Source: Planctomycetota bacterium
Lineage (GTDB): Bacteria > Planctomycetota > UBA1135 > UBA2386
NCBI GenBank assembly: GCA_965223545.1
Contig: OZ245006.1
Location: forward strand, 6,496,001 to 6,560,000
Reading direction: 5' to 3'
DNA length: 64,000 nt
Both the position numbers and the translations under genes were made by a program. How positions within the stretch are numbered: position 1 is the first letter of the stretch; each line of letters starts with the position of its first letter. The notes under the pieces are model-generated. The model was not told where the DNA came from. It worked only from the letters and a program-made list of their open reading frames with translations, and made no database searches. Shown one piece after another: positions 44,764-64,000 of the stretch.

Positions 44764-44824
44764 ACTTTAGCTCTTCGAGATCCGAGCAGGCGGGGGTGGT
44801 TCCCAAGACCAGATGGAGGACACC

Positions 44825-47141: not shown

Positions 47142-48574
47142 ACTGGGTTCCAAACGCTGCCTTCACGCAGCCCGAGCGTGTCTTCGAACTCGTGATGGAT
47201 GAGCTGCGCGCCCGCCGAATCAAGGACATGCTCTACCTCGGGTTTACCGAAGCTGGTGCATTGTTCTTGCCAGCGTCGGCCTTGGATGCGCACGCGTACT
47301 GTCTTGGTGGAACCCGGTCGGGTAAGTCCTGCAGAGCCCTCATGCCGCTGCTTGCGCAGATGATTCGCTGGGGAAAGCGAGTGTGGCTTATCGACTGCAA
47401 GCCGGAGCGAGCCCTGTGGCCCCACCTACAGGCGGAGGCACAACGCGCTGGCCGCAAAGCAACCATCTTCTCCCTGTACCCCGGAGGGCCGCCAAGCGAC
47501 TTTGAAATCGATGTGTTCGCGGACCTGCACGGTCGGTCGCCGCAAGAAGTGTCAAGCCATCTCGTATCCGCGCTCCAGCTCGATGGAGCCAAGGAGCAGT
47601 TCTTTTCTGACACTAACCGAACGTGTCTTTCGAGCGGCCTTGGAGCACTTCGAAAGAAAGGAGGGCCACCCAGCTTCGAACGCTTGGCCCCCGAACTTGT
47701 TCGCCTCAAGACCGCGTTCCCCCATGCCCAGCACGTGCGCGACGTAGTCAGTAGTCTAGCGAGCGAGCCGATGTTCAACCCGCGCAAGCGGCCGAGGTCG
47801 CTCGAAGAAGTCGCAGCGAGCAACGAGATCGTCTACTTTTGTGTTCCCATCTCGAGCGAGAAAGGAAACGTCGGGAAGGCTGCCGCAAACCTCATCCTTC
47901 GCCTTGCGGCGCTGTCTCAGCGCGATGCGGCGATGCGCGGCCAAGATCGAGAGAGGCTGTTCTTGGCAGTCGACGAGTTTCAAGGAATCTCCGATGCGCA
48001 ATCGGTGCGAAACGTCCTCGCGGAAGCTTCAGCGCATGGCGTTTCCCTTCTCCTCTCCCACCAGACGAAGGACCAGGTCCAGGATAGAGCACTTGCCGGA
48101 TTGCTGCGTCAGGTAGGTCTCATCGTCGACTTCTCGCCCATCGAAGACGAGTTTTGGCTGAAACGAAGCGGACAAGTTTGGAGAGATGTTCCCGTTTGGG
48201 GCGGCGACGACGAATTGGTTTCCGTGCGCGAGCAGCTTGAGTATCGGTTCGACTACCGCGACTTGAACTTCGCGACCCGAACCCCAGGCATGGCCGTTGT
48301 GGATAGCCCGCACGCTGCGGCGGAGCTCGAGCTACCCCAGGTCGCCTTCCTCCCGTATCACGTCAGCGCGGCTGAGGCGAAGCACCGGGAAACTCTATTT
48401 CGCACTCCGGTGAGCCTGCCTGCCGTGAGCTCGCGGCTTGCGAGACGCCCGCAGCGAAAACCTGCTTCTTCGTCGAAACCGGCGGCGAAGCGCGCGCCCA
48501 CACATCGCTCGGATCCGCTTCTTCAGCTCTACGAGCAGCTGAAGCGCGAAACTCTGCTGGCGCCTATCCTTTAG
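47138..48574 (+). CDS. Type IV coupling protein (TraD/VirD4-like ATPase)
   Basis: Walker A GGTRSGKS, LIDCK, Walker B LAVDEFQ, and LLLSHQT..Q. Confidence 0.8.
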   Translation: MNWVPNAAFTQPERVFELVMDELRARRIKDMLYLGFTEAGALFLPASALDAHAYCLGGTRSGKSCRALMPLLAQMIRWGKRVWLIDCKPERALWPHLQAEAQRAGRKATIFSLYPGGPPSDFEIDVFADLHGRSPQEVSSHLVSALQLDGAKEQFFSDTNRTCLSSGLGALRKKGGPPSFERLAPELVRLKTAFPHAQHVRDVVSSLASEPMFNPRKRPRSLEEVAASNEIVYFCVPISSEKGNVGKAAANLILRLAALSQRDAAMRGQDRERLFLAVDEFQGISDAQSVRNVLAEASAHGVSLLLSHQTKDQVQDRALAGLLRQVGLIVDFSPIEDEFWLKRSGQVWRDVPVWGGDDELVSVREQLEYRFDYRDLNFATRTPGMAVVDSPHAAAELELPQVAFLPYHVSAAEAKHRETLFRTPVSLPAVSSRLARRPQRKPASSSKPAAKRAPTHRSDPLLQLYEQLKRETLLAPIL

Positions 48575-48576
48575 CG

Positions 48577-48860
48577 TGGCCATCAAGTTCCAGTTGAAGA
48601 ATCGGAATCCCTATCGGCTGCTCGGGATCTCATCCCAGGCCTCAACGAGAGAGGTCGCCGCTCGCCTCAAGCAGCTTGAGGCACAGGGATACATCGACGA
48701 AGCAAACCGTCTTCGCCACATCCTGCTCGATACCGAGGAGCGCTACCTCCACGCCTGCATCCAGAACGGCCTCGGCCTCCATTCTCTGGCTGAGTGCACC
48801 CCGTTCGAGCGAGAAGACGCGGTGCACAGGAGTTGGTGGGCGAAGATCCTTGGGTCGTGA
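48577..48860 (+). CDS. Small J-domain-like protein lacking HPD
   Basis: NPYRLLGISSQAS.REV resembles DnaJ helix I. Confidence 0.45.
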
Positions 48861-49013
48861 TGAAGGCCAGTGATTCTCGTCGAGTTCGCGGAAGCGCCGG
48901 GGCCGCGCCTGGCCTACACCCCCTCAAACCAACTTCTCCTCTTGCTGCGCTCGCGCGGCCAGCGGATTCGCCGCTGGTCACCAGAACGCCAGCACTAGAA
49001 AAGGAGAAGTGCC

Positions 49014-49373
49014 ATGAACTCAACTCTTGTAGACGCACAACCGGGATACGAGCTCTTCCGCACGGAAGACGTGTACGCCATGGTCGAGCCAACTGGCGAG
49101 GCCGTTGTCGAGCTCGGTGAAGTGCTCATCAGTGAAGAAGTCCTCGCGGAGCTTCCGTTTTGGCGCGTTGCCCCGCTCGTCATCGAGCACGAGCAGCGGA
49201 AGACCGCCAGCATGAGATCCCGTGAGACTAAGGAGCTGCTTGATCTCGCACCGCACGGGTTTCACTTCTCGGTGCACGAGTCGTCTGACCCGTATTGCCG
49301 ACTGTGGATCACGACGGAGCCACCGTCGAGCAGCGAGTTCCGCTCAACAACGGTGGAGCTTGCGAGGCTCTGA
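49014..49373 (+). CDS. Hypothetical protein
   Basis: AAGGAG RBS; followed by a terminator. Confidence 0.6.
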   Translation: MNSTLVDAQPGYELFRTEDVYAMVEPTGEAVVELGEVLISEEVLAELPFWRVAPLVIEHEQRKTASMRSRETKELLDLAPHGFHFSVHESSDPYCRLWITTEPPSSSEFRSTTVELARL

Positions 49374-49389
49374 GTTGAATTCGCAACCC

Positions 49390-49428
49390 GCAGGAGGAGG
49401 ACGCTGTTCTCCTCCTGCACCTTTCTTC
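49390..49428 (+). terminator. Intrinsic terminator-like hairpin
   Basis: GCAGGAGGAG...CTCCTCCTGC followed by a pyrimidine-rich tail. Confidence 0.55.
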
Positions 49429-49493
49429 TCTGGACCAAGGGCGCACACGGCGTCGACCTTGCGTTCCGCACTGAACCCGCGGTAGCGTGGCCC

Positions 49494-50537
49494 ATGGCGA
49501 CTCAGCTTCCCGAGAAACCCGAGGGTTACGATGAGTTCCTCGGCACCCTGAAGGAACGCATCCGCACCGCGCAAGTCGACGCCGCCCAAGCGGTGAACCG
49601 CGGGATGATCATGCTCTACTGGAGCATCGGAAACGACATCCTCGAGCGGCAACGAAGCCAGGGCTGGGGCGCGAAGGTCGTTGACCGCCTAGCCGCTGAC
49701 CTGAGACGAGCGTTCCCCTACACGCGGGGATTCTCCGTTCGTAACCTCAAGTATATGAGGTCTTTAGCGGAGGATTGGCCCGACGCCGAAATTGTGCAGC
49801 AGCTGCTGCACAAATTGCCGTGGTTCCACCTCTGCGCTCTTCACGACCGGGTCAAGGACCCCGCGGCGCGCCTCTGGTATGCCCGGAAGACCCTTGAGAA
49901 CTGTTGGAGCAGAAACGTCCTCTGCATCCACATCGATCGGGAACTCTACGAAGCCCAGGGCGCGGCCACCAGCAACTTCGCCGAGACGCTCCCTGCGCCG
50001 CAGTCTGACCTCGCTCGGCAGCTCATCAAGGACCCCTACAAACTCGACTTCCTTGGCATCGCCGAGGAGGCCGAGGAGCGAGCCATCGAGCGGGGACTCG
50101 TCCGACACATTCGCGATTTCCTGCTGGAACTTGGCCAAGGCTTCGCGTTCGTCGGCAATCAGGTGCCGCTCGAGATCGGTGGAGAAGGGTTCCGCCTCGA
50201 TCTTCTCTTCTACCACCTGAGACTCCGCTGCTTCCTGGTGATCGAGCTCAAGGCCGGGAAGTTCAGGCCGGATTACGTCGGCAAGTTGAACTTCTATCTC
50301 TCAGCTGTGGACGACATCCTTCGCCACCCGGACGACCAGCCGAGCATCGGCATGATCCTCTGCAAGGATCGAAACGACGTGGTGGCCGAATACTCGCTTC
50401 GTGGAACCGGTCAGCCGATGGCCGTCTCGCAGTTCGAGCTCACGAAGTCCCTTCCTGCCGGCCTTGCTGGGAAACTACCGTCCGTCGACGAGATCGCCGC
50501 CGAACTCGCTAGCAACTGCGACAAGACGTCAACCTGA
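49494..50537 (+). CDS. YhcG/DUF1016 PD-(D/E)XK nuclease
   Basis: LYWSIG...WGAKVV, GFSVRNLKYMR, KDPYKLDFL, FLLELGQGFAFVG, DLLFYH...IELK. Confidence 0.93.
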   Translation: MATQLPEKPEGYDEFLGTLKERIRTAQVDAAQAVNRGMIMLYWSIGNDILERQRSQGWGAKVVDRLAADLRRAFPYTRGFSVRNLKYMRSLAEDWPDAEIVQQLLHKLPWFHLCALHDRVKDPAARLWYARKTLENCWSRNVLCIHIDRELYEAQGAATSNFAETLPAPQSDLARQLIKDPYKLDFLGIAEEAEERAIERGLVRHIRDFLLELGQGFAFVGNQVPLEIGGEGFRLDLLFYHLRLRCFLVIELKAGKFRPDYVGKLNFYLSAVDDILRHPDDQPSIGMILCKDRNDVVAEYSLRGTGQPMAVSQFELTKSLPAGLAGKLPSVDEIAAELASNCDKTST

Positions 50538-50683
50538 GTTCCCGTCCGGACTCTCTTTGAAGCGGCGCACTCGGGGTGCGACTACATCTACCAAACAGTC
50601 ACGCTCGTTGCTCTTCCGCCTGGTCTTGGGCGTGGATGGCTCCTCACAGAGTCATGCAACCTAAGGATCGATAGGAGGAAGAC

Positions 50684-50941
50684 ATGTCTGGGAACATCCA
50701 ATTCATGTGGAATGGGAAGTGGAGGCGGCGTCGGGTGCGAACGATGCTCACCCTCACACCAGATGGCAGAGTGAGAAAAGTAAAGGCCGAAGGGGAACTC
50801 ATACTCCTCTCCGGCCCGGAAAAGCCACTCATGAGCGTGGCGGCAAGCGAACGGCCAAGCCACGAGCTCCATTGGGGATTCGTTGCGTTCCTCGCGGGAG
50901 TCGTAACTGTTCGCGCCATTGACCTACTTTCGCACATGTAG
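50684..50941 (+). CDS. Small hypothetical protein with C-terminal TM helix
   Basis: AGGAGG RBS; hydrophobic tail. Confidence 0.5.
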   Translation: MSGNIQFMWNGKWRRRRVRTMLTLTPDGRVRKVKAEGELILLSGPEKPLMSVAASERPSHELHWGFVAFLAGVVTVRAIDLLSHM

Positions 50942-51148
50942 GTCTTCGCGGTGCTCGGTACTAACCGAGCACCGCCCTTCCTATCACGATCTCCGGATCC
51001 AAGTCAAGCTGGGCGGTCATGGTCCTCTTTCTTCGCGTTCGAGGACTGCACATAGCAACGCGGAACGGCAGGCGGCACCCATCGTGGTGTCGTCTGTCGT
51101 GTACCGCGGACTTGAAGCGTCATCGGCTTCCGTCTCCTACAAAGGAGC

Positions 51149-52051
51149 ATGCAGTTCTTCGCTAGGAATGGGCGCGTCATCAACATCGATGAGAACGACC
51201 GCCTTGGTCGGGGCCTCGAGGGTGCGGTCTATCCGGCTAGCTCCTGGAGCGCCGCCAAGATCCTCCGGCCAGAGACCCTGCAGAAGCACGGGGGCTTTCA
51301 CGAGCAGAAGATCGTTGCCCTTGCGGAGCTCGGTCGTCATGCGCGTACGGAGCCGCTTCAACGGATCATCTGGCCGCTTCATCCTCTCTACACCAAGCAG
51401 GGCGATTTCGCGGGTTTCGAGATGGTCCGCATTTCTGATGCAATCACGCTCCTTGATGCCGCCTCGGATGAGGATTGGCCCTTTTGCGAGCGGCAGGATG
51501 CAGCGTGGCAACTCGCGCGGATCTATCGCGATGCGCACGCGGTAGGCATCCTTGTCGGTGACGGCAAGCTCGAGAACGCGCTCTACAAGGAGTCGACGAG
51601 GCACGTCTGTATCGTCGACAGCAACTCACTGCATCTGCCCGCGTTCCCTGGCACCGCGATCACGATTGACTACGTGAGGCCCGAGGAGGCAAGACGGGCA
51701 GAGGCGCAAAAGACGAGCAAGGACGAGCCCGCTCGGTATCGCGTGTCTCGCGCGGCCGACAACCACGCTCTTGCAGTGCAGCTCTTTCAGTTGTTGCTCC
51801 TGAACGTCCACCCGTTTAGCGCTGGAGACTCAATCGAGGAATGCGTGAAGCATGGGTATTGCGCGTTCCCCTATGAGGAACACGGGAACCGGAAGCGTGT
51901 GCGTTCCGGACCGTACCTTCGACAGTGGCGACGCCTCCCGCGGCATCTGCAGGCCATGTTTAGCGCGGCGTTTCACCGCGACAGAGCGCCGGAGCCTGCT
52001 GAATGGGAGATCGCCCTTTCCTCTGGCATTAGAAAAAGGAAGGCAAGCTAG
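51149..52051 (+). CDS. YegI-like Ser/Thr kinase (TerY-P triad)
   Basis: LGRGLEGAVY, AAKI, IIWP...FAGFEM, VGD...N, VDSNS, DNHALAVQLFQLLL..HPF. Confidence 0.8.
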   Translation: MQFFARNGRVINIDENDRLGRGLEGAVYPASSWSAAKILRPETLQKHGGFHEQKIVALAELGRHARTEPLQRIIWPLHPLYTKQGDFAGFEMVRISDAITLLDAASDEDWPFCERQDAAWQLARIYRDAHAVGILVGDGKLENALYKESTRHVCIVDSNSLHLPAFPGTAITIDYVRPEEARRAEAQKTSKDEPARYRVSRAADNHALAVQLFQLLLLNVHPFSAGDSIEECVKHGYCAFPYEEHGNRKRVRSGPYLRQWRRLPRHLQAMFSAAFHRDRAPEPAEWEIALSSGIRKRKAS

Positions 52052-52749
52052 TGGTAAGAAAGAGAAAGCGCGTCCTCGGGACGTATACCGCGACCGTGTT
52101 CGTTGAGGACATCAGCACCAGCATGCAGGCCCCTGGCCGCATCGATGCCATCAACGCCATGAAGCCGAAGATGCTGCAGGCGTTGAGCAATCTGTCCGTA
52201 GGTGTTCGATACGCCGAGGTGAACTTCGGCTCGGACGCCTGCGTAGTGCAGGACTTCGACGATGTTCCAAACGTCACTCCGCAGCAGTACGCCGCCGACG
52301 GTGGCAACACCAATCTATCTGCCGGAGTGGCAGTGGCACTCGATCTTCTTGAAGGCCAGAAGGAGTACTTCAAGAAGAACCAGATTCCTCACAGGCAACC
52401 GGTGCTCATCGTCGCGAGCGACGGCGAGGCTAACCGAGAGACCGTTCCGGGTTACGACGCGCGTGTCCGCGAGCTCGTGGAGCGCAACAAGTTGACCGTG
52501 ATCCCGATCGCCGTTGGCGAACTCGGCGCATACCCCGTGCTCGAGTGGATTAGCCCCAAGTGCACGCCGGTGATGGTGAACACGAACAACGCCGCGAGCG
52601 TCGATTGGGACGACCTGCTGCAGCTGTTGTCTCAGTCGATTGACACGGGCAGCACGGAGGCGATCCAGGCACTTGCTGCCTCCCAAGCGCGGCAAGTCGG
52701 CCTGGACGGCGCGGATGAGGAACTGGTGGAGGAGGAAGTGGCACCGTGA
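52051..52749 (+). CDS. TerY/YegL-like vWA protein
   Basis: DISTSM MIDAS motif, GGNT, RQPVLIVASDG. Confidence 0.85.
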   Translation: MVRKRKRVLGTYTATVFVEDISTSMQAPGRIDAINAMKPKMLQALSNLSVGVRYAEVNFGSDACVVQDFDDVPNVTPQQYAADGGNTNLSAGVAVALDLLEGQKEYFKKNQIPHRQPVLIVASDGEANRETVPGYDARVRELVERNKLTVIPIAVGELGAYPVLEWISPKCTPVMVNTNNAASVDWDDLLQLLSQSIDTGSTEAIQALAASQARQVGLDGADEELVEEEVAP

Positions 52750-53810
52750 GCAGCGCTTGTTGGTGGCTGGCTAGCGTAAGCCTTCGAGGGCGTGGCCATG
52801 TGGCTGCCAACAAGCCCTGCCAGGACGCTCACTTCGTTTGGGCAGACGGCAACATGGTTGTGCTTGTCGTTTGCGACGGGGCGGGTGGCGCGGAGCTGGA
52901 GGGGCAGTTCTCTCACGTCGGCTCCTCGACGGCGGCTCGCGTCATCGGGCGGTTGCTCGCCTGCCACGTTGAGGAGTTCCTCGCGGGGGCGCTGCGTCCG
53001 GAGGCCATTCTGGACGCAGCGCGATTCTCGCTAGGCGAGGTTGCCGAGGAGAAGGGGATTCCTCTGAAGGCGCTCGCAACAACGCTGGTTGCGCTTGTTG
53101 CAGATGAAGGGCGGGTGGGGACCCTTCACATCGGAGATGGGGCCGCCTACATGCTGGACAGGGAAATAGGGATCTGCCTGTCGCCGCCCGACAGGGAGCC
53201 CACCGGCACGACGATTTTCGTGACTAGCGACGCACCACGAGTTCGGTGCTACTCGCGGGAAGTACCGCCGCACGTCACCGGTTTCGCTGTGACGAGCGAC
53301 GGCGCGGAGGGCCTCTACCATGCTGAGAGCACGGAGGTCCATCCTCTTGTCGCGGAACTCATCCAGCAGCCAGACTTTGGGCCTGGGACCGACCGTCTCG
53401 AAGGGTTGATGCGCGAGTGTCTGGTTCCGGCCTCCGGCGATGACATCACTGTCGTCGTCGCCAGGAAGCCGTTCATCTCTGGGGTCTATGGCTGCCCAGC
53501 GTGTGGGGGGCACAATGTCGGTGCGGTGATTACGCGGTGCCGTGGAGAGTTCCTCGTGCGTTGCCGATCGCGGTCATGCAAAGAGAGCGCTCTGAGGGTC
53601 CGCATGGATGAGTACCCTGACGCGCCGGCGCTGTTCAGGAGGAACCTGCTACGCGCCGGAATGACGGCAACGATGGTTGCGCAGAGGATTCGTTCGCGCG
53701 TCAAGTCTAAGGTTCAGCGGCGGCAGCCTCACATTGCCCCCGCCGCGCCCTCGTCGTCTTGTGGTTGGGGGTTCCGGCGGCGCTTGGCCGGGCCGAGTCG
53801 ACGTTGCTGA
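52746..53810 (+). CDS. YegK-like PP2C phosphatase with C-terminal Cys-rich (zinc-ribbon-like) extension
   Basis: SLRGRGH...PCQDA, VCDGAG, ATTL, HIGDG, TSDG, DDIT; then CPAC...C..C...C. Confidence 0.85.
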   Translation: MSSACWWLASVSLRGRGHVAANKPCQDAHFVWADGNMVVLVVCDGAGGAELEGQFSHVGSSTAARVIGRLLACHVEEFLAGALRPEAILDAARFSLGEVAEEKGIPLKALATTLVALVADEGRVGTLHIGDGAAYMLDREIGICLSPPDREPTGTTIFVTSDAPRVRCYSREVPPHVTGFAVTSDGAEGLYHAESTEVHPLVAELIQQPDFGPGTDRLEGLMRECLVPASGDDITVVVARKPFISGVYGCPACGGHNVGAVITRCRGEFLVRCRSRSCKESALRVRMDEYPDAPALFRRNLLRAGMTATMVAQRIRSRVKSKVQRRQPHIAPAAPSSSCGWGFRRRLAGPSRRC

Positions 53811-54526
53811 ACATCCTCTAGCAGTTCCCTGAGTTCCTGAGAGAGCAGCTTGGCTCTTTCGAGTCTGGGATCTCGATGCTTCGAGTCCGGATGCAGCAAG
53901 TTCCACCCAAGTTGCACTAGGCAGCGGTAGACCTCGAAACCCATCCGAGTCATCTCTGTGAAGAGCCTGCCGTTCGGATTCACGCCCGCACTTCCATCGC
54001 CGTGCATTCGGTCGTCGAGCACGAATAGGGCCGTATCTCGTTCTGATGTTGCGATGTAACACATCGTGGCGTGCCAAGTAGCGCGAAAGACCTGTTTCGC
54101 CCATTTGTCAGCCCTATCGGTGCGGTGGGCGTACATCGGGTTTCTGTCGCTGATGACGACATACCACGCGAAGAGCTCGTCATCAGAACATGTGCTCAAG
54201 AAGGTCATCCAGAGCGCTAGCCACCCGGCCTCGGGATCGGTAGCTCGTGCGCGATACTCCTTCGTCCACCATGCGTGGACCGTACCGTGGCTCGGCGTGT
54301 CGCTTTCGTCTGGGCGTTTGTCGAAGTCGTTCACGGATTCCCGGCTACGGAGCCATCGCACAATCTTCTCAACACACTGTCGGGACGAGTATTCGCACCG
54401 TGCAGGGCGGTCTGGAGGTGCTACGCCTCTTTTCACGATTCTCTCCCAGCGCTCGTCGTCGAGCACTGGAGCGTTCGCCGCGATCGCGTCAAATACGTTG
54501 TTGTCCAACACGTTTCTGTCAGCCAT
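53729..54526 (-). CDS. Hypothetical protein directly downstream of the peptidase-sigma fusion
   Basis: GGAGGAG RBS before ATG 54526, 10 bp after the upstream stop. Confidence 0.6.
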   Translation of the reverse strand: MADRNVLDNNVFDAIAANAPVLDDERWERIVKRGVAPPDRPARCEYSSRQCVEKIVRWLRSRESVNDFDKRPDESDTPSHGTVHAWWTKEYRARATDPEAGWLALWMTFLSTCSDDELFAWYVVISDRNPMYAHRTDRADKWAKQVFRATWHATMCYIATSERDTALFVLDDRMHGDGSAGVNPNGRLFTEMTRMGFEVYRCLVQLGWNLLHPDSKHRDPRLERAKLLSQELRELLEDVQQRRLGPAKRRRNPQPQDDEGAAGAM

Positions 54527-54536
54527 GTTCTCCTCC

Positions 54537-56144
54537 CTATTCCTTGTACGATCCGAACTTTCCTCGCGCGTTGGATAGGTGAGCGCCCACCGTCCCGATG
54601 CTAACGCCCAACGTAGCGGCGATTTCTGGATAGGAGAGCTGCTCGGAGCGAAGTTCAACGACCTTCCTCTCAGAGTTTGTTAGTAGACGCCAGAGGTGCT
54701 CTTGCTCATCTTGGATCTCCAACTTCTCCGCGGGCGCAGGATGCGGACAAACGACTTCCTCCGGGTGATCCAGCGCTTGTGGCGCACGTGTCTCTGATCG
54801 AAAGTAATCGACCTTCGCACTTCGAATGACCCTCGAAAGATACGGGCGCAACGCACGTGCGTCGGAGATGTGGCTGATGTGCTTCACCATCCTTCTTCCC
54901 ACTTCGGCTGCGACATCTGGTGCCGCGGTTTGGTCAAGATCGCGTCGGAGCTGACGGGTCACATTCCGGTGCAGCGACTTCCATGCGCCCGCGTCTCCGG
55001 CCTGTAGCAGGTCGAGCATGCTCGCCGACTCCAGACGCTCTCGACTTGCTAGGAGTCTCGTTCGGCCGACTTGAAGGCCGCCGAGAGCGGATTCGAGGAT
55101 CTGACCTGCTTGTGTTAGCACCCAGCGTCGCCACTCAGTTGAGCTCGGCACGTAGGCTTCTCGCACGCGCGCGCGGATGGCGCACCCAACATCCGAGCGT
55201 GGGTCGAGTGGGCTTCGCGCGAGGTAAGAACGCGCCATCGCAGCGCGCAGGCATTCCCATCGATCGACGGTCCCGAACTCTACGCTGAGTGCACAAGTCC
55301 AGTCGGATGCTGGGGACAGGCTCCGCGCAGCATCCATGGTGCTGCCCTGTACTTCGTAGGCGATCGACTCTTCCGCCAGGATCGATTCCACTTCCGGGAA
55401 GATCGCGCGAGCTACGCTGAGCTCTTCCGATCCCTCCGGCTCCGAAGCAAGTACCGTTGCTTTCGCCCATGGGCCAAGTCCTGAGTGAAGGTCGACGAAG
55501 AGAACGCGCTCTGCGTGCTGGGGTATCGCAGATAGCGCTTCGACGAACGTGCGCGCCGACCAGGTTACGCCAGTTCCGCCGTAGTACGAGCCGTCATCGA
55601 AGTCGAACTGAACCGGGCCGAGTGCGCTGAATAGCTCTTTCTCCCCATGTGCGTCGACGAACCTCTCGAGTGACGCGATCCGGCGACCCCAGTCCGACCC
55701 CCTATAGTCCTGAGCTAGGAGCATCGGGTGGACCCTGGCGTATGCGTCGTTCGTTGGCTTCGGTCTGCTGTGGTCAACGAAGGCGCGGTTGAGGTCGACC
55801 CAGTTCTCGTCTTGCCGCTGGTCGTAGCTGGCGCCGTATGGGTTCACGCCGTGGATGAACAGGACTGCGACGTCATCCGGAAGACCGGCCTTCGCGATGC
55901 GTTCCAAGAGTTGCAGCTGAATCGCGGATCCGACGAGTAGCTCGCACCCGTGCGTCCCCGAAGAGCACACAAGCCAAGATGTTGCTTTGCGCTTCCCAGC
56001 GAGAGCTACGTCAACGGCGAGCTGCTCGCCGTTCAGTCCGGGCGAAGGGTGAATCCAGTGGGCGGTGTCGAGCCCTTGCTGCGCTGCTGCGTCGAGTAGC
56101 CGGCTTCGGGCCACGGACGGCTGCGCCGAGAAGAAACGTTCCAT
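54537..56144 (-). CDS. M14-like metallopeptidase (DUF2817-type) fused to a C-terminal ECF sigma factor
   Basis: SSGTHGCE, HGVNPYG, VDLNR, DLHSGLG, VEFGT; then sigma region 2 (YLSRVIRSAKVDYFR) and region 4 (SYPEIAATLGVSIGTVGAHLSNAR). Confidence 0.82.
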   Translation of the reverse strand: MERFFSAQPSVARSRLLDAAAQQGLDTAHWIHPSPGLNGEQLAVDVALAGKRKATSWLVCSSGTHGCELLVGSAIQLQLLERIAKAGLPDDVAVLFIHGVNPYGASYDQRQDENWVDLNRAFVDHSRPKPTNDAYARVHPMLLAQDYRGSDWGRRIASLERFVDAHGEKELFSALGPVQFDFDDGSYYGGTGVTWSARTFVEALSAIPQHAERVLFVDLHSGLGPWAKATVLASEPEGSEELSVARAIFPEVESILAEESIAYEVQGSTMDAARSLSPASDWTCALSVEFGTVDRWECLRAAMARSYLARSPLDPRSDVGCAIRARVREAYVPSSTEWRRWVLTQAGQILESALGGLQVGRTRLLASRERLESASMLDLLQAGDAGAWKSLHRNVTRQLRRDLDQTAAPDVAAEVGRRMVKHISHISDARALRPYLSRVIRSAKVDYFRSETRAPQALDHPEEVVCPHPAPAEKLEIQDEQEHLWRLLTNSERKVVELRSEQLSYPEIAATLGVSIGTVGAHLSNARGKFGSYKE

Positions 56145-56988
56145 CGAGTAGGTCCCTCCCGAGGGGAGAAACCCGCGTGAAGCGCCACTTGGCAAGTGAG
56201 GGTTGCTGGCTTTCGCCGAGTCGCTACGCTCACAGGTGTTCGGATGCGCTTCGGCGCTCCACGCGGGCGAGCCAGAGCAGGCGCTTTGGTTCGCCCGTCG
56301 CTTTTCCCCCGGGAGGGGAAAGCAAGCAAGCGGCTTTGAGTCGCATGTTCATAGCCCGTGTTGTGGTTGGTGTCGACCGCACGTGCGGTCGGCGTGTTGT
56401 AGCAGGGTCAAGGTAGCTACTTCACGAACGGTTCCGCAAGCCCCCTGGACGCAGCAAGTTGGTCCTCACACTGGGGTAGAGCGAAACCTCCGAATCGCTC
56501 CACGCGAACCGTCGATCGTGGCACGCCGTCGTGGAGCGAACGACATGCTTCGCTCCACGTCGCTTGACTAGCAAACCCGAGATGTGAGAGCGTTGCGCCG
56601 AGAGTCAGGCGACGGTTCTAAGGGGAGGTTCAACGCGGTGGGCGAGCGTTGTTGGTTCGTGTGTTGTAGCAGATTCATGGTCCGCTCCTCGTCCGCGCAA
56701 AGTGCGCACGTCGTCGACGCTGCGCCGGAGCTTTCCCACGGTTCTGTGGTCTGACTCTCACTCCCATTTGCGTCTCGCGGCATCACGTGGGATGAAACGC
56801 GTGGGATGTTCCACGTCGCACCGCAACCTGTTGTGCTGTGTGGAATGAAACGCAGCCGAGCCTCCACGCCACTAGTTGCAGCTCGGTGTCAGACCATGAA
56901 CTCGATGTCGCCCTAAAGAAGACTGCCTCATGCTCGTCCTTCCTCTTTGCCTGCAGCTGTCTCGAGAAAAAGACACGGAGCAAGAAAC

Positions 56989-57585
56989 ATGGCCAAGAGT
57001 CGACGCCCCGACAACGAGATGACGCGGAAGCTTCTCCCCCTACTCGACCTCGCGAAAAGACCGTCAAGGTCTCTCACACCGCATCAGCTCGCCGAGCTTC
57101 GTGGCATATTCTGCGCCTTCTTCAGGCGTAGTGCGAGCGGTTGCGACGCCACTGCTTCCGACTTCTTTCAGGACCTCCTGCTCAACGTGCTGAAGTACGG
57201 TACGCGCTACGACCCGGCGCGTGAGCGTTTTCCCGGCGCGTGGGTGTGGTCGATTGCCCGGAACCTGGTCGCGAAGCATCTTCAGAGACAGGGTCGCACC
57301 TCGCGCGGCTATGAGTCGGATGAACTCGCGATCCAACTGGCCGCGTGCGATGCGCGAGGTCCTGCGGAGCTGGCTGAAACTCACGAACTCCAGGTCTTCC
57401 TGTCACGTCGCAGTCAGTTCAATGCGAACGAGCGGGCTCTTTTGGAGAGGCGTCTAGACGAGGCGGACATCGAGGACATCGCTCACACCGAGGGGCTGCA
57501 GCACGACGGGGTTCGCACTCGCATCAACCGGGGGCGACATTCCCTTCGCGAGCGCCTTCGAGAAGCTGGCTTCCGCCCCGACTAA
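56989..57585 (+). CDS. ECF sigma factor
   Basis: DFFQDLLL...YDPAR..F.AWVWSIARN; DIAHTEG...VRTRINRGRHSLR. Confidence 0.78.
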   Translation: MAKSRRPDNEMTRKLLPLLDLAKRPSRSLTPHQLAELRGIFCAFFRRSASGCDATASDFFQDLLLNVLKYGTRYDPARERFPGAWVWSIARNLVAKHLQRQGRTSRGYESDELAIQLAACDARGPAELAETHELQVFLSRRSQFNANERALLERRLDEADIEDIAHTEGLQHDGVRTRINRGRHSLRERLREAGFRPD

Positions 57586-57653
57586 TCAGAGGGTCCGATC
57601 TGTCGAGGACTTCGACCGAGGTCTCAGAAGGGCGCCAACGATGGCCCGAGTAG

Positions 57654-58739
57654 CTATGTCGACGCTAACGTGACCACCCGCGCACGCATTGCCTCGCGGA
57701 GCGGCGCGGAAACCGAGATGCCACCATGCTCGAGATTGTTGGTGAGGAGGGGGCCGAGAATCAGGTTCGCGATTTCACGCCCCTCAACAGACCATGGCCG
57801 TCCTGCGAGGGTGGTGCGAGCAAGTTGAGCGAGTGACGTGGCAAGCACATCTGCGAGTTGGATGCACCGACTCGAATGAGACGTTGCCGTGGCGAAATCG
57901 TGGAGGTGTGCGAAACCGATACTTGGGAAGTCAGGGACGGGGGTCAGCTTCTTACCGTGCTCACCGATCTTCGTCATGTGCCCGACCCATTGCCTCAACA
58001 CTTCGCCGTACTGATTCGTCTCATCATGGAACACGCTGATGAGACCGTAGCCTTGCGCCTCTGCAAACGCATCTGCCGCTTCGAGCATCCGCATCGTCCC
58101 GGGAAGGTGAGGGGAGGTGACTTGGGAGTGTTTGTGACCGCCGCGGTCGCTGAAGTCGTAGTCGATGACCTCCTGTAGGTTCTTCAGGCACCCCTCGATC
58201 ATATGTGCGATTCCCGATTCGCCCAGCGTGCGAACGCCGGCAGCGACTGCTGTGATCCCTGACCTGAGGCTTGCCTCCGTGGGGGCGGCGATTGCTCTCG
58301 CGTAGGCAACAGCCGACCGTTCTGGAATGTTGTAGAGGAACTCGATGAGTTCCAGGTAGCCGGGGTTGCCGATCGATGGCGCGCCTTCGGCCCGGGGGTT
58401 TGTATGTCGATCGAGCAAGGCGTGGACGATCCGCTCGGCTAGTTGGTAGCGCTTCTCGACGAGGTAGAAGAATGGGATGGCTCCCGCCTCCTTGACTGCC
58501 GTGACCAGGTCGCGGGCGAGTGGCCACCCGGTGCGCCTGCGTAGCATCCGGCTTGCGTGGAGCTCCGCCGCATTGCTGCGTGACGCCAGCCCGTCGATCG
58601 TCGCGACGACGGCGTCTTCCGAGTCAAGCGGAACGAGCCAGCTCGCAAAGACCATCACGGGCTGGGCACGATCGTTGTAGTTGGCCCCGGTGTTTCCGGC
58701 TTCGTCGCAATAGAGGCGATGGGTGTCCTGGACGATCAC
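57654..58739 (-). CDS. DUF3800-family (RNase H-like) protein
   Basis: LYCDEAGNTG, ELHAS and IQLADVLA motifs. Confidence 0.8.
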   Translation of the reverse strand: MIVQDTHRLYCDEAGNTGANYNDRAQPVMVFASWLVPLDSEDAVVATIDGLASRSNAAELHASRMLRRRTGWPLARDLVTAVKEAGAIPFFYLVEKRYQLAERIVHALLDRHTNPRAEGAPSIGNPGYLELIEFLYNIPERSAVAYARAIAAPTEASLRSGITAVAAGVRTLGESGIAHMIEGCLKNLQEVIDYDFSDRGGHKHSQVTSPHLPGTMRMLEAADAFAEAQGYGLISVFHDETNQYGEVLRQWVGHMTKIGEHGKKLTPVPDFPSIGFAHLHDFATATSHSSRCIQLADVLATSLAQLARTTLAGRPWSVEGREIANLILGPLLTNNLEHGGISVSAPLREAMRARVVTLAST

Positions 58740-58873
58740 ATCGAAGTCATCGTTGCGCCCGGATGGGAGCTTGAGGCGGTTTGGGTCGGGGCCCGCGATC
58801 CCGCGCCGATTCGCAGGTCTGCGGGACGAGGCAGTGGCCCATGGCAAGCAGATGTGCGCCGGTTCAGAACCTT

Positions 58874-58938
58874 GTTCTGGGTGTCCCCTTCAGTGTTGAC
58901 AGCGAATGGTAAGAGAAGTTGTTGACGAAGGGGTTGGA
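58874..58938 (+). repeat. Direct repeat, copy 1, with dif-like core and TTGACA
   Basis: GTTCTGgGTGTCCCCTT..GTTGACAGcGAAtGGTAAgAGAAGTT..AAGGGGTT; matches 62315-62388. Confidence 0.7.
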
Positions 58939-59052
58939 CGCCTAAGCCCCTGTGACGTGGGGCTTTGTGGCTCGGCCGCGCAATTGCTTGTCGGCACCTG
59001 AAACCCTTCAGTCGGGTGTAGAGTTCATGGTGACCGTGCTACGCTCGTTTCG

Positions 59053-59511
59053 ATGGCCGAGACCTACACAATCGGGCGCCTGGCGAAGGTCGCCGAAGTT
59101 CCCATCTCAACCGTTCGCTACTACGAACAGCGCGGACTCTTGAAGCCGGAACGGCGAACTGAGTCCAACTACCGCGTCTACGGCCCGGCCAGTTTGAAGC
59201 GCTTGCGGTTTATCCGCATCGCGCAGCAAAGCGGCTTCACTCTCGAAGACATCGTGCTCCTTCTCCAGCTTCGCGACCGTGGAAGTGCCACCAGCTGCAA
59301 GCAGGTGGAAAACCTCGTCGACAAGCGACTCGACAACATCACGGCCCAGCTTCGGGAACTTCGACGCGTGCAAAAGGTCCTCCAGTCGACGCTCGAGTGG
59401 TGCAGGAACCCTCGCGTGAAAGGTCGCTGCCGAGTGCTGGACGACTTGGACGGGCAGGCCGCAAGTTCAGGGAAACGCAAATCACCGAGACGTGCCGGAA
59501 AGGCCTCTTGA
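59053..59511 (+). CDS. merR: MerR-family heavy-metal-responsive regulator
   Basis: TIGRLAK...TVRYYEQRGLL HTH. Cys at 82, 117 and 126, the same spacing as the Hg-binding triad of MerR (also shared by CadR/PbrR). Confidence 0.9.
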   Translation: MAETYTIGRLAKVAEVPISTVRYYEQRGLLKPERRTESNYRVYGPASLKRLRFIRIAQQSGFTLEDIVLLLQLRDRGSATSCKQVENLVDKRLDNITAQLRELRRVQKVLQSTLEWCRNPRVKGRCRVLDDLDGQAASSGKRKSPRRAGKAS

Positions 59512-59539
59512 CCCTTCACCATACTTCAAGCTGTAGCCT
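59508..59539 (+). promoter_or_regulatory. MerR-type long-spacer promoter for the HMA-Trx selenoprotein
   Basis: TTGACC-N20-TAGCCT with an imperfect dyad in the spacer; ATG 7 nt after the -10 (leaderless-like). Confidence 0.7.
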
Positions 59540-59546
59540 TTCCCTC

Positions 59547-60269
59547 ATGCACCCCATCCTGCGCCCAGGCCTCAGTTCGGTTCTGCTGCTCTCCCTGGTG
59601 GCTTGCTCTGAGCCACTAACAGACTCGCCAACTCACGCGCCCACTCCGGAGCTCTCGAAGCTCGTCTCGATTCGCGTCGCTGGTTTCATCGAGGCTGCAG
59701 GCATCACCTGAATGGGTTGACCGAACAAGGTCAAAGAAGCCCTGGATGGGCTTCAAGGCGTTCAGGATGTGCAGGTTGACCTCGAAGACGACAGGTTCGA
59801 TGTCACTTACAACCCGAGGGAAGTGTCTTCCGACACCTTGCTCGAGGCGGTCAGAAAGCTCGACTACACGCCGCAGCTGGTAACGCGCGCGGAGGGTGGG
59901 GGAGAGGCGCCTGCGGACCAGGTCGATGCGGCGCAGCTCCCCAAGGAACTTGCGGCGCTCTTCGCCAAGGCTCGGGAATCCAATAAGGTCGTGCTGCTCA
60001 AGTTCTCCGGGCCAGGTTGACCGCCGTGCAAACGCATGGATGCCGTGACGTATCCGCACGAAGTCGTGAAGAAGGAACTTGATGAACACTGGGTCACGAC
60101 TCACTACGACGTGAGTGAAGCGAAGCGTGTCGCTACCCTCTTCGGAGTCTCGGCGATTCCTGTTGCTATTGGTGTGACCGCTGACGGAATGGTTCTGGGG
60201 CGAGTTCTTGGGTTTGTCGAACCCGAGCGTTTCGAGAAGGAACTCGAGACACTTCGCGCCAAGCGCTAG
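59547..60269 (+). CDS. Predicted triple-selenocysteine lipoprotein: HMA domain (GIT-U-MG-U) plus thioredoxin domain (U-PP-C), 240 aa
   Basis: Three ORF-track pieces are in one frame, separated only by TGA at 59709, 59718 and 60018, each at a CxxC cysteine position. Lipobox LVAC; TAG stop; SECIS-like hairpins. Confidence 0.88.
59736..59754 (+). promoter_or_regulatory. Putative bacterial SECIS hairpin
   Basis: GAAGCCC-TGGAT-GGGCTTC; the loop starts 22 nt after UGA 59718-20 and 31 nt after UGA 59709-11. Confidence 0.7.
60025..60060 (+). promoter_or_regulatory. Putative bacterial SECIS hairpin
   Basis: ACGCA-TGGA-TGC(C)GT upper stem and CGTGC/GCACG lower stem; loop 16 nt after UGA 60018-20; same TGGA loop as 59743. 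Confidence 0.6.
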
Positions 60270-60865
60270 TTCGGGACCACCTTGTAGCCAGTGCGCTCAA
60301 CCGCCTGAACGACTTGCTCGTTGGCGGGAGGAGAGTTCGGCTCGAAGAACACGGTCGCGAGGCCTTCGCTGTAGTTGACGGAAGCACTTGCTACACCGGG
60401 AACCGTGAGAAGCTCCTTCTTCACGTGCACCGTGCAAGCCTCGCACGTCATGCCTTCGATTCGAACGGTCGCCTTCTCGGTCGCTGCTGCATTCGACGGG
60501 GTCGCCTCTCCCTGGTCAGGCGCGATGAGGCCTACGTAGTTCGGGAAGAGGCCAACAACCAACACCAGGGCCGTTGCGACCCAGAGCATCGCTCGGTTGA
60601 AGCGCACGAACTTGTTGCTCGGAGTCGCGCAAGTCTCCCCTGGTGCGCACGCCTGTTTCCGAAAGTAGGTGAAGTAGAAGCCACCAGCGAGAAGCACCGC
60701 TGCGCCACCGAGGAAGTAGGGACGCACAGCTTCAAACTGCGCCGAGATTCCAGCTGCAGATACGCCGAACGCAAGAAGCAGAAGGGGAAGCCAGCAGCAC
60801 GCAGACGCCACAACAGCTGCAAGCACCGACCCGAATGCGGCCAACATCCCACCGCGACCACTCAC
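60266..60865 (-). CDS. merTP: MerT-MerP(HMA) fusion mercuric-ion transporter
   Basis: ASACC.LPL TM1, RPYF, CAPGETC loop, C-terminal GMTCEAC HMA domain. Confidence 0.9.
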   Translation of the reverse strand: MSGRGGMLAAFGSVLAAVVASACCWLPLLLLAFGVSAAGISAQFEAVRPYFLGGAAVLLAGGFYFTYFRKQACAPGETCATPSNKFVRFNRAMLWVATALVLVVGLFPNYVGLIAPDQGEATPSNAAATEKATVRIEGMTCEACTVHVKKELLTVPGVASASVNYSEGLATVFFEPNSPPANEQVVQAVERTGYKVVPN

Positions 60866-61278
60866 GATGTGGCCTCCTTGACGGCTTTTCTGAGGTCACC
60901 AAGACAGCACGACCCCTTCGGGTTCATCGTCTCGCAGCTGCATTCGCCAGCCTTCACCTTCGCGGTCACGGATTCCACGACGGCGCTCTCTCCGGTGCGA
61001 AGCACTTCGTCGCGGATGCTCTCCGCGCTGTGCCCGAAGCAGTAGCAGACCGGGTGGGGAGCGTCTGTCTCCTTCACCCCGACTCGGACCGCGACGTCGT
61101 CCTTGAGCAGCGTCGTTCCATCGCCTGCGAAGTAGACAACATCACAGTCGGGCTCTGGGCAAAACACCCACTGTCGCCCCTCAACAGCGCCTCGCACTTC
61201 TTCTCGCGCGAGGCTCTCGACCGTGACGGTCTTGACCGGCTTTCCTGGCGTCTTGGTCTTGGGGCAGAGAAGGTCCAT
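60862..61278 (-). CDS. Cys-rich CopZ-N-like Zn/[2Fe-2S] metallochaperone
   Basis: FCPEPDCDVVYF, VGVKE, PVCYCF, CSCETMNPKGSCCLG. Confidence 0.85.
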   Translation of the reverse strand: MDLLCPKTKTPGKPVKTVTVESLAREEVRGAVEGRQWVFCPEPDCDVVYFAGDGTTLLKDDVAVRVGVKETDAPHPVCYCFGHSAESIRDEVLRTGESAVVESVTAKVKAGECSCETMNPKGSCCLGDLRKAVKEATS

Positions 61279-61284
61279 GCTCCC

Positions 61285-61316
61285 ATTTACGGCCTTGAAC
61301 CCTGCTTTAGGGTCAA
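61285..61316 (-). promoter_or_regulatory. MerR-type promoter/operator for the metallochaperone-merTP genes
   Basis: Minus strand TTGACC-CTAAAGCAGGGTTCAAGGCC-GTAAAT, then ATG 6 nt later. Confidence 0.6.
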
Positions 61317-61353
61317 GGGTTTTTCGGAGAATGACCAAGAAGCCCGCGCAACG

Positions 61354-62154
61354 TCACTTGTGGAGCAACTCGACGACCTTGTCCACGGCGTTCTTCGACG
61401 GCACGCGCACCGCGCCTACGAACTTGCCGTCCGCATCCAACACCACCAGCCCTGGGATGGGGGCGTCCTCGTGCTCGTGCTTGAACTTGTAGGCATGCGG
61501 TCTCCTCACGATGACGCGCACGGCATTCTTCGAGGTTTCGATGACTTGCTCGTCGTTCACGATGTCTGAGAGCGCACGGCTCTCAAAGCGGGTGCTTGGT
61601 CATCAAGTCTCTGCGCCAGAAAGCCCCACAAGAACGAGCTTCTTCTCCTTCTTGGCCTTCGCAACCGCATCAGCCAGCGACGCAAGGCTTGCGAACTGCC
61701 ACTCAAGGCGCGGCTTCTCGGGAGCCTTCATCTCCTTGGCCCCGAGCGATACCGAGACTTTCTCTTCCTTCAACGTCTTTGCGCGCAGCACGACGGCCTC
61801 GAGCTTCTTCCCAGGCTTACTCACACGCAACACATCGGCGATGTCGTCCTGGCTGAAGAGTTCGACTGCGCCGAGCTTCACGAGCACGTCACCGGCCTCG
61901 ATGCCTGCTTTGCCAGCGGCGCTGTCCTTCTCCACATCTGAGACAACCTGGCCGCGAGCTCGGACCTCGAACTTGAGGTCGAGCTGCTTGACCTCTTCCT
62001 TGGATGGAGCGCGCGTGCTCGCGCCGAGTGTTGCGACCTTGACGAGCTTCGGTTCCTTCTCTTGAGGGTCTTGGTCTGGCTTCTCTTGCGCTGCGACCGG
62101 GCAGCAACAGAGAAGCCCAACGACCGGGCCTAGAAGGTGACGGGTCCTGACCAT
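61354..62154 (-). CDS. Predicted selenoprotein with tandem Sec-Sec: signal peptide, PDZ domain and thioredoxin-like domain (GAET-U-U-PST), 266 aa
   Basis: ORFs 61603-62202 and 61354-61560 are in frame, separated by TGA-TGA (61605-61600) and 13 sense codons. The Trx fold continues on both sides (AVAKAKKEKKLVLV ... IPGLVVLDADGK). SECIS-like hairpin follows. Confidence 0.78.
61565..61587 (-). promoter_or_regulatory. Putative bacterial SECIS hairpin
   Basis: Minus strand TTTGAGAGC-CGTGC-GCTCTCAGA; loop 21 and 24 nt after the two UGAs, with G at loop position 2. Confidence 0.68.
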
Positions 62155-62187
62155 GCTTTCGGTTCCTGGGGGGGTTGGAGGGCTGGC

Positions 62188-62219
62188 ATTGTCCACCCTC
62201 AACCATGGTGCATGGTCAA
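62188..62219 (-). promoter_or_regulatory. MerR-type long-spacer promoter for the PDZ-Trx selenoprotein
   Basis: Minus strand TTGACC-ATGCACCATGGTTGAGGGTG-GACAAT: 20-bp spacer with a dyad centred on CCATGG. Confidence 0.72.
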
Positions 62220-62314
62220 CTACTCCGCGAGGGGAAGTCGACCCGGGCGATGGGCGCCTTGGAAGGTGAGTCGGCGATGTCCTGCCGGACCGCTCACCAC
62301 CGTTCCCTAACGTC

Positions 62315-62388
62315 GTTCTGTGTGTCCCCTTCTGCCGTTGACAGTGAACGGTAAAAGAAGTTATCTTGCTTCTGAAAAAGGGGTTAGA
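62315..62388 (+). repeat. Direct repeat, copy 2, with dif-like core overlapping a sigma70-like promoter
   Basis: GTGAACGGTAA-AAGAAG-TTATCTTGCTT; TTGACA at 62338. Confidence 0.7.
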
Positions 62389-62713
62389 TCGGAAGGGGAG
62401 ACGCCGTTTGAAACCACGGAAGAGGCCAACACCACACTACTCGGACGACGCACCATTCTGCTGGATCGATGAGTGGTGGACCTGGGTGTTCACGCCTACC
62501 GGTAGCGTGCCGTGGCTCGAGCGCGAGGGTCGAGAACTTGAGGACGGCATGCGGCTTGAGGTTCGGCTTGGTCCTGAACGTTGGCTTCCGGTCTACGTGC
62601 GGCGGCGCGGGGAGGTGGTCACGTTCTGCTACCCCTTGCCGCACATCGATGACGAGCTCCTGATCGACATCCCGCACGAAGCTGAGCTTCGCCTTGTGGA
62701 GCCTGCGGCATGA
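62366..62713 (+). CDS. Hypothetical protein coupled to the recombinase
   Basis: ATGA overlap with the recombinase; start uncertain. Confidence 0.45.
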   Translation: MLLKKGLDRKGRRRLKPRKRPTPHYSDDAPFCWIDEWWTWVFTPTGSVPWLEREGRELEDGMRLEVRLGPERWLPVYVRRRGEVVTFCYPLPHIDDELLIDIPHEAELRLVEPAA

Positions 62714-63810
62714 CGGCGGGGCTCCTCACCGAGACGCCGCTGTCCAGACCGACGGACTCGAAGCCAGTTCGCGAGTTGCCGCGGATTCTTGAGGGACATG
62801 GCTCGCCCGCGGTGCGTCGGCGCGTCGAGAGCTTCGTCGCCTCTGTCGAAGCGATGTTCGAGGCCTGGGTCGCAAGGAGGGACAACCCGCACACTCAGCG
62901 CGCCTACCGGCAGGACGTTATGCACTTCGTTCGGTTCGCCGGGATCGAGTGGCCACGCGACGACTGGAACTTGCTCAAGAGCACGGTGCCCGACGTCCAG
63001 GAGTGGCGGACCTTCATGATCCAAGTCGATGGTAGCGCCCCAAAGACGGTGCTCCGTCGAGTGACGTCGCTCTCCCGGTTCTTCGAATACATGCGTGAGC
63101 AAGCGGCGGAGTTTCGGCTTCCCGTGATCGTGCCGAACCCCGCGCACAAGAACCACATCCCGCGCGAGGATGCAGAGCCAGTGGCGCCCACGAAGGAGCT
63201 CACGTTCTCTCGAGTTCGGCAACTCAAGGAGCTCGCCGCGGGCGAGTCGGTGCTGGCCTACCGCGACCGCGCGATCATCTACTTTTACCTCTACACCGGT
63301 GCTCGGATCGGCACCGGTTGTTCGGTTCGCGTCGAGGACTGTCACCTCGACCCCGAGGATCCCTACTTGATGGTGCGGGAGAAGGGAAAGGGCGCGAGCC
63401 GCAGGCGCGTTGGCATCAACGCGCAGTGCGCAGAAGCGCTCGCGGAATACATCGAGGAGGCCAGGCTCGGTAGCGGGCCCCTCTTCCGCCCGCGGGCGAA
63501 TTCTCGGTCGGCAAAGCTCGCAAGCCGGGCGATGACCACGGTCACGATGTATCGGTTGCTGAAGAGTTACCTCGAGCGGTTGCCGCGCGCGTCACGCGAG
63601 GTTCAGCTTCCAGACGGAAGCATCGTACGTCGGTGCATCTACACGCCTCATTCGCTTCGAGCGACAGCCGCAACCCAAGCGGATGAGGTTGGCGTTCCGA
63701 TCACCAAGATTCAGGAGCTGCTCGGCCACAAGCAGATCAAAACAACTCAGGTCTACGTCAAGCGCAAGCGCGGAACGAAGGAGAGTGCGTCGCATCAGCT
63801 GCCGTTCTGA
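62710..63810 (+). CDS. Tyrosine recombinase (XerC/D-like resolvase/integrase)
   Basis: N-terminal TQRAYRQD SAM-like domain; RDRAII...YTGAR, KG, HSLRATA and LLGH...TTQVY catalytic residues. Confidence 0.93.
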   Translation: MTAGLLTETPLSRPTDSKPVRELPRILEGHGSPAVRRRVESFVASVEAMFEAWVARRDNPHTQRAYRQDVMHFVRFAGIEWPRDDWNLLKSTVPDVQEWRTFMIQVDGSAPKTVLRRVTSLSRFFEYMREQAAEFRLPVIVPNPAHKNHIPREDAEPVAPTKELTFSRVRQLKELAAGESVLAYRDRAIIYFYLYTGARIGTGCSVRVEDCHLDPEDPYLMVREKGKGASRRRVGINAQCAEALAEYIEEARLGSGPLFRPRANSRSAKLASRAMTTVTMYRLLKSYLERLPRASREVQLPDGSIVRRCIYTPHSLRATAATQADEVGVPITKIQELLGHKQIKTTQVYVKRKRGTKESASHQLPF

Positions 63811-63874
63811 TTCGATGGCTTTCGCGGCGCGGTCAACTAGTCTGGTGTGCGATTCCCTTGGTTTGTGACCATGG

Positions 63875-64000
<126 letters not shown>

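Follow-up and report, generated by a model that had tools for sequence, protein, structure and literature searches.

A predicted three-selenocysteine HMA-thioredoxin lipoprotein in a MerR-associated gene cassette of a Planctomycetota bacterium

Introduction

In the 64,000-nucleotide stretch of Planctomycetota DNA analysed here (hereafter, the window), one reading frame of 240 codons (59547..60269, forward strand) passes through three TGA codons before it closes with a TAG, which raises the question of whether these triplets are errors, stops or selenocysteine (Sec) codons and, in the last case, what a protein with three such residues would do. Read through, the gene encodes a lipoprotein signal, an HMA domain with a UxxU motif and a thioredoxin (Trx) domain with a UxxC motif. 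An initial sequence-only reading had proposed a triple-Sec lipoprotein on these grounds, arguing that chance nonsense mutations at exactly these sites were implausible and that such a protein was very unusual.

Some of the ingredients have been catalogued before. In the review tables, the family NF041115 appears as a “putative mercuric reductase”, for which PMC13188914 cites PMC1976440, although passages of the latter did not show “UxxU”. Among the 119 families in Table 1 of PMC13188914, the sole one with three Sec residues is NF041537, an arsenite methyltransferase/AhpD selenoprotein. The bacterial SECIS model summarized in that review places a hairpin, with a G among the first two positions of its loop, 16-37 nt past the UGA. 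PMC13582414 (2026) leaves open how two Sec residues can be placed close together when the SECIS has to lie within the coding region and not far from the UGA.

Results

The frame was found on the sequence as proposed, with UGA55 at 59709-11 and UGA58 at 59718-20 (the pair spanning 59709..59720, forward strand), UGA158 at 60018..60020 (forward strand) and a terminal TAG. Sequencing error was rejected, as the TGAs are unchanged in contigs of two studies. A run X4 contig, which may be where the window comes from, covers the whole stretch with 0 differences, and a separate study (run X5) has two low-depth contigs that cover all three TGAs, again with 0 differences. Our first coding-potential screen missed the gene because of the lower GC of the island, and looser thresholds recovered it. 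Database protein matches to it are mostly fragments cut at the TGAs, many of them starting after residue 58 or ending at residue 157.

With Cys substituted for Sec, the product matches Pfam HMA over 51-107 with 49.5 bits (cut-off 24.8) and Thioredoxin_2 over 142-233 with 42.3 bits (cut-off 27), so that the TGAs do fall, as had been noticed, on the Cys positions of the HMA and Trx CxxC motifs. The N-terminus carries a predicted lipoprotein signal peptide (59547..59606, forward strand), a hydrophobic stretch ending, when read by eye, in LVA-C20, which fits the lipobox consensus; of 29 sequences in the alignment, at least 90% have Cys at this position. An AF2 model, built from 29 aligned sequences with Cys for Sec, has a mean pLDDT of 88.7 and a pTM of 0.73. 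The HMA domain (residues ~38-112; 59658..59882, forward strand) is identified by PF00403, by the AF2 model and by Foldseek, which matches it to an ATP7B domain and to MerP. An inserted strand precedes its T-U55-M-G-U58-P motif; the sequence-only reading, which had seen a plain GMTCxxC loop, was therefore right about the Cys positions and wrong about the loop, which is G[MF]-x5/6-G-x-T-U-x-x-U-P, 6-7 residues being inserted. The plain form does occur next door, as the same reading had said, in the GMTCEAC of the neighbouring MerT-HMA protein. Given that the insertion is absent from plain MerP/CopZ motifs, the metal chemistry of this loop may differ from theirs. The thioredoxin domain (59943..60260, forward strand), of the DsbD-gamma/Trx7 type, combines the Trx fold with a [CU]xxC motif (here G-P-G-U158-P-P-C161) and an Ile-Pro loop, lies above the cut-offs of PF13098 and PF13899, and has C161 and P205 invariant in the alignment; its top 9 Foldseek matches are all DsbD C-terminal domains.

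Homologs were aligned from 32 loci (this one, 29 genomes and two metagenome contigs, namely L041, 70% identical to the HMA-Trx protein, and the partial L042). TGA stands at site 55 in 32/32 of them, at site 58 in 31 (the remaining one having TGC) and at site 158 in 20 (the other 12 having TGC or TGT), with no TAA or TAG at any of the three sites in the 32 aligned loci. Sites that hold only TGA or Cys codons across all these loci bear out the argument against chance nonsense mutations. Beyond this set, a stop-tolerant search of 400 other genomes from the phylum (likely Planctomycetota, to judge from planctomycete-specific domains in one neighbourhood) gave matches across both domains in at least 35, all those among the matches listed having 2-4 in-frame TGAs, and the full-length gene was seen in none of 36 genomes from this genome's own family. 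In the comparison with L041, the three segments give dN/dS values of 0.27 (codons 1-54), 0.18 (59-157) and 0.15 (159-240), and dN is below dS behind the TGAs in four further close pairs; these substitution patterns indicate purifying selection on the frame past the TGAs. The sequence-level outcomes that the initial reading had named as refuting it were not seen.

The third Sec is dispensable, since 12 of the 32 members have an ordinary WCxxC-type Trx. In every member with TGA at site 158, the Trp before the motif is replaced by G, T or N. Two changes are needed on the tree of the Trx Sec (the partial L042 being omitted), of which the starred branches force only one, and the tree may thus reflect a single origin. 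Separately, L025 and L027 have a fourth in-frame TGA, at site 208, three residues past the Trx Ile-Pro loop, where the others have R, W, V or A.

The genome has the full bacterial set for Sec decoding (selA, selB, selC and selD), with selA, selB and selD over their cut-offs and with selD carrying a TGA of its own; the in-frame UGAs align with Cys in homologs, the usual mark of a selenoprotein. Among the homolog genomes, selA occurs in 27 of 29, versus 288 of 401 in the phylum sample (the homolog genomes are kin, so these counts are not independent), and the two genomes without it, 80% and 84% complete, have selB over the cut-off. Based on sequence and RNA signals, we predict that the three UGAs are very probably decoded as Sec, a reading of the triple-Sec lipoprotein that codon conservation, selection, the decoding machinery, the hairpins described below, the fold and the lipobox Cys all support.

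The selenoproteome of this genome (G000) appears to be large, with ~30 candidates by motif. For 17 of 20 other in-frame-TGA candidates picked by hand (L091-L110), the TGA lies within a Pfam domain of a selenoprotein type already known (deiodinase, Prx, Trx, MsrA, Fdh, Grx, Rdx, CMD, DUF3179 or HMA). The single DsbD of the genome (G000:C1:4306602, reverse strand) has UxxC in its C-terminal domain. We also observed a lipoprotein-like ORF with a UxU motif, a strong hairpin and no Pfam match (L093, G000:C1:3168601, forward strand), and candidate Sec sites in two non-redox domains, one as UC in an FG-GAP repeat protein (L094, G000:C1:492917, forward strand) and one as UxxC in a carboxypeptidase-regulatory-like domain (L107, C1:3793782, reverse strand). 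A cysS gene lies directly upstream of the tRNA-Sec gene (G000:C1:7951380-7952986), and a truncated cysS fragment lies at C1:7810270-7810716.

Three candidate hairpins lie at or after the TGAs, and the loop G that would matter for decoding lies +33 from UGA55, +24 from UGA58 and +25 from UGA158, all within the 16-37 nt of the model. The first hairpin, H1 (59717..59734, forward strand), has UGA58 in its 5' arm and is weaker than the second; 73% of its alignment cells are paired and one pair shows 7 compensatory changes, a pattern that the U-P and V codons in part impose. The second, H2 (59736..59754, forward strand), is of the SECIS type and holds the loop G at +33 from UGA55 and +24 from UGA58, with 87% of cells paired over 32 sequences and two-sided changes in 5 of 8 pairs. 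Together, H1 and H2 fold with z = -3.46, and the whole structure scores above 500/500 shuffles and above all slid controls, although relatedness can inflate the shuffle test. The synonymous codons within H2 are frozen (Ala GCC in 28/29, Leu CTG in 31/31, Gly GGG in 30/30 and Glu GAA in 18/21), against background uses of GCC, CTG, GGG and GAA elsewhere in these genes of 0.36, 0.34, 0.27 and 0.30. Furthermore, the single-UGA UxxC variants (L022 and the second HMA in L057) retain the hairpin at +33, so this spacing likely works for the first UGA. From these sequence patterns, H2 likely serves both UGA55 and UGA58.

The third hairpin, H3 (60038..60055, forward strand), also of the SECIS type, follows UGA158. 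A hairpin at this position is present in 19/19 TGA members (mean -7.7 kcal/mol), while the 12 Cys members average -1.5 kcal/mol, 5 of them without a hairpin and one at -11.0; by these folding energies, the predicted H3 tracks the TGA form of site 158. The H3 region alone is not unusually stable (z = -1.33), and the two Trx-Sec groups differ in its register (+24/25 versus +22).

A second gene with in-frame TGAs, which the initial reading had missed, lies nearby. It encodes a PDZ-thioredoxin protein (61354..62154, reverse strand) with adjacent UGA-UGA codons at 61605-61600 (GAET-U-U-P-S). The two codons are adjacent in 13/13 aligned copies, in an alignment set chosen by that motif; in 200 other genomes, 7/7 matches have 2 TGAs, and a profile search of the 29 homolog genomes gave 11 matches in 9 genomes, each with 2 TGAs. 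All 11 near-length database relatives align only before the UU site, and no all-Cys relative of the UU protein was found among them. The UU domain is predicted to have a Trx fold (pLDDT 93.3, with DsbH and DsbD-gamma matches), and a weak profile alignment (E 0.018) places the first U of UUPS on the first Cys of DsbD. A SECIS-type hairpin (61565..61587, reverse strand), with 91.5% pairing over 13 sequences, places its loop G +26 and +23 from these adjacent codons. The UU gene adjoins the HMA-Trx gene in L013-L015, belongs to the same cassette in L041 and is fused to the HMA-Trx gene in L033. In another genome, a UU-domain gene (L076, G026:C149) sits beside a VTT-domain gene and a MerA-like flavoprotein (402/454 bits).

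The HMA-Trx gene is preceded by a MerR-family regulator (59053..59511, forward strand) with Cys82, Cys117 and Cys126, presumably matching the numbering of transposon MerR. A triad of this kind is generally a mark of divalent sensors, MerR and ZntR among them, and not of CueR. The regulator scores below both cut-offs (ZntR, 116.9/143 bits; MerR, TIGR02051, 109.1/150.85), so the metal is not fixed by family assignment. Directly upstream of the HMA-Trx gene lies a MerR-type promoter candidate (59507..59539, forward strand; TTGACC, a 20-nt spacer and TAGCCT, with the ATG 7 nt past the -10 box); our sigma-70 scan covers spacers of 16-18 nt and so passes over promoters with a 19-20 nt spacer. The candidate contains the dyad CTTGAC-N13-TCAAG, of which the window has two copies where 0.02 would be expected, one ahead of each unit, and C1 has three; among 72 loci the exact dyad occurs only here and in L041. 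The second copy (61294..61317, reverse strand) stands ahead of the copZ-N and merTP genes, which converge on the HMA-Trx gene: a CopZ-N-like zinc/2Fe-2S metallochaperone (60862..61278, reverse strand, ATG at 61278; NF047645, 125.9 bits, cut-off 100) and a MerT-HMA (MerTP-like) transporter with all-Cys motifs (60266..60865, reverse strand; NF033556, 115 bits, cut-off 180). The Mer-type features present are thus a MerR with three Cys, MerT/MerP and a long-spacer dyad promoter; MerA over its cut-off was found in none of 5 genomes, the best scores being 345.8/454.45 bits in this genome and 402.3 in G026.

The cassette is likely mobile, given that a tyrosine integrase (62710..63810, forward strand) adjoins it here and also lies beside it in L041, that the GC of the island (~0.60) is lower than that of the genome (0.70), that L041 has the same cassette behind different upstream genes, and that none of the 36 genomes of the same family showed the gene at full length. 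In the nearest genome homolog (G060), merR, the copZ-N/merT/HMA genes and the HMA-Trx gene follow in a row. The wider region from 44001 to 64000 has a GC of 0.60-0.64 and holds the integrase, a DUF3800 gene and an ECF-like sigma factor, together with ORFs that we take, by eye, to be ArdC-like, coupling-protein-like and VWA/PP2C/kinase; it is likely an integrated element.

At 20 wider loci, a MerR gene is near in 6 and some metal or metalloid gene in 10, the flanking genes in these 10 being MerB, MerC, heavy-metal P-type ATPases, CusA/B-like pumps or ArsR/Acr3-type genes. The other 10 neighbourhoods, which belong mostly to three-Sec members from two families, showed no metal genes among the ORFs scanned (198 out of 263 called). 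Elsewhere, in G104, three HMA-like UxxU motifs lie within 1.6 kb (L062:6715, 7417 and 8283, reverse strand), between two heavy-metal P-type ATPases.

Discussion

Taken together, the reading that we consider probable, on balance, is that SelA, SelB, SelC and SelD insert Sec at the three UGAs, that the product is a predicted periplasmic lipoprotein whose UxxU motif binds a soft metal under the control of a MerR-type switch, and that its own UxxC thioredoxin keeps this motif reduced. In such a mechanism, MerR would sense a divalent soft metal and induce the lipoprotein through the dyad, with one SECIS (H2) serving UGA55 and UGA58 and a second (H3) serving UGA158 during its synthesis. The protein would be exported, lipidated at Cys20 and anchored in the periplasm, where the two selenolates of the HMA UxxU could bind Hg(II), or Cd, Zn or Pb. 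The Trx domain would keep the HMA loop reduced with electrons from DsbD (itself a predicted UxxC protein in its C-terminal domain), and the bound metal might then be held or passed to the MerT-MerP importer. The parts of this reading are not equally firm: metal handling as the main role is predicted with nearly the same moderate confidence as the whole, reduction of the HMA loop by the protein's own Trx domain is possible but somewhat doubtful, and a diselenide may form in the HMA loop.

The alternative that survives best accepts a real triple selenoprotein and makes it mainly a general periplasmic redox enzyme, working as a diselenide/disulfide relay and recruited only secondarily to metal islands. 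Housekeeping genes are indeed the neighbours at 10 of the 20 wider loci, three genomes from a single family have the UU PDZ-Trx gene next to the HMA-Trx gene and show no metal genes there, the Trx domain resembles DsbD-gamma and the HMA loop carries its insertion. However, this locus and its nearest homologs sit with MerR, CopZ-N and MerT-HMA genes, a MerR-type dyad stands directly upstream both here and in L041, and metal or metalloid genes flank the other 10 wider loci, and we therefore regard a mainly redox role as unlikely. A more elaborate version of the metal role is more improbable still, namely a mobile, selenium-based heavy-metal defence without mercuric reductase, in which the MerR-induced three-Sec lipoprotein would trap Hg(II) on its selenolates, with the UU PDZ-Trx protein as its partner and one SECIS per UGA pair.

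Fewer than three Sec residues would be present if one or more of the UGAs were read as Cys by the SECIS-dependent tRNA-ReC (SelC*), which, according to PMC13582414, occurs in ~56% of the genomes with UXXU hydrogenases. A second, partial cysS in this genome could be taken as a hint of such a system, but it covers residues 1-153 only and continues into unrelated sequence. Within this genome (91% complete), no tRNA-ReC system was found, that is, neither a second Sec-like tRNA with a U discriminator nor an extra SelB* (no second selB); the single tRNA-Sec-like gene has the anticodon UCA and the discriminator G, and a 95-nt “tRNA-Cys” call is malformed, with no match to RF01852. We consider Cys insertion at these UGAs very improbable.

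Genome-wide reassignment of UGA (to Trp or Gly), a pseudogene or split genes, for which one might cite the splitting of the gene at its TGAs by gene callers and the fourth TGA at site 208 in two homologs, have a negligible probability and were rejected, as TGA is the main stop (of 2322 long seed ORFs, 1756 end in it), TGG codes for Trp and is served by a tRNA-Trp(CCA), the sites alternate with Cys and not with Trp, selection is the same on either side of each TGA, and the frame folds, in the AF2 model, as two intact domains.

Compared with known systems, the reading of three Sec residues in an exported metal-binding protein has both precedents and new elements. The best NCBIfam match of the HMA-Trx protein is NF041115, likewise an HMA fold with UxxU and two Sec; that model is, however, a single domain of 74 positions, to which the present protein adds the loop insertion, the lipoprotein signal and the fused Trx with the third Sec, and the score stays below the cut-off of 95 bits (54.8 for the whole protein and 56.4 for the domain alone, while the all-Cys MerTP neighbour reaches 61.1). 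The Trx domain has the same fold, and Sec at the same first CxxC position, as the UxxC thioredoxin/thiol:disulfide interchange selenoproteins (PF13098, PF00085; TsoB, NF045694), but it is fused behind an HMA domain, has the W before the motif replaced and scores 27-30/805 bits against TsoB. By its motifs, the HMA-Trx protein is predicted to work like NF041115 and the UxxC thioredoxins, and by score it is no member of NF041115. The MerT/CopZ fusion-like selenoprotein NF045683 and the MerP/CopZ chaperones share an HMA domain in a MerR/MerT setting with our protein, which nevertheless scores 23.5/375 bits against NF045683 and has its MerT-HMA as a separate, all-Cys gene. NF041537 also has three Sec residues, in unrelated domains. 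The UU neighbour shares PDZ and Trx7-type domains with NF041199, whose listed motif is CxxU with a single Sec; in the neighbour, the PDZ domain comes first and U-U-P-S follows, and its match (36.9/300 bits) covers the PDZ part only.

The three-Sec lipoprotein fusion is below every NCBIfam cut-off, and it is absent from the 119 families in Table 1 of PMC13188914, as is the vicinal Sec-Sec (UU) motif, although BSepDB or Haft and Tolstoy 2025 could list either; our literature searches found neither the fusion nor the motif. The new part is the three-Sec lipoprotein fusion, the HMA UxxU (NF041115) and the UxxC thioredoxins being already catalogued, and the claim that the protein is very unusual consequently stands for the fusion and falls for the UxxU loop itself. 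The closest parallel in codon arrangement is in a different protein, the UXXU Group 4 [NiFeSe] hydrogenases, for which PMC13582414 describes two UGAs three codons apart and raises one shared SECIS as a possibility. Here, the UxxC, UxxU and UU forms with fixed hairpin spacing are natural controls for that proposal.

Conclusions

These results add a predicted selenoprotein family that annotation cuts into fragments and that at least 35 of the 400 genomes sampled from the phylum carry. Its members and the UU genes offer natural test sequences for the service of two UGAs by one hairpin, with spacings of +33/+24 (UxxU), +33 (single UGA) and +26/+23 (UU). If the metal role holds, selenolate chemistry would be used in metal resistance outside the cytoplasm.
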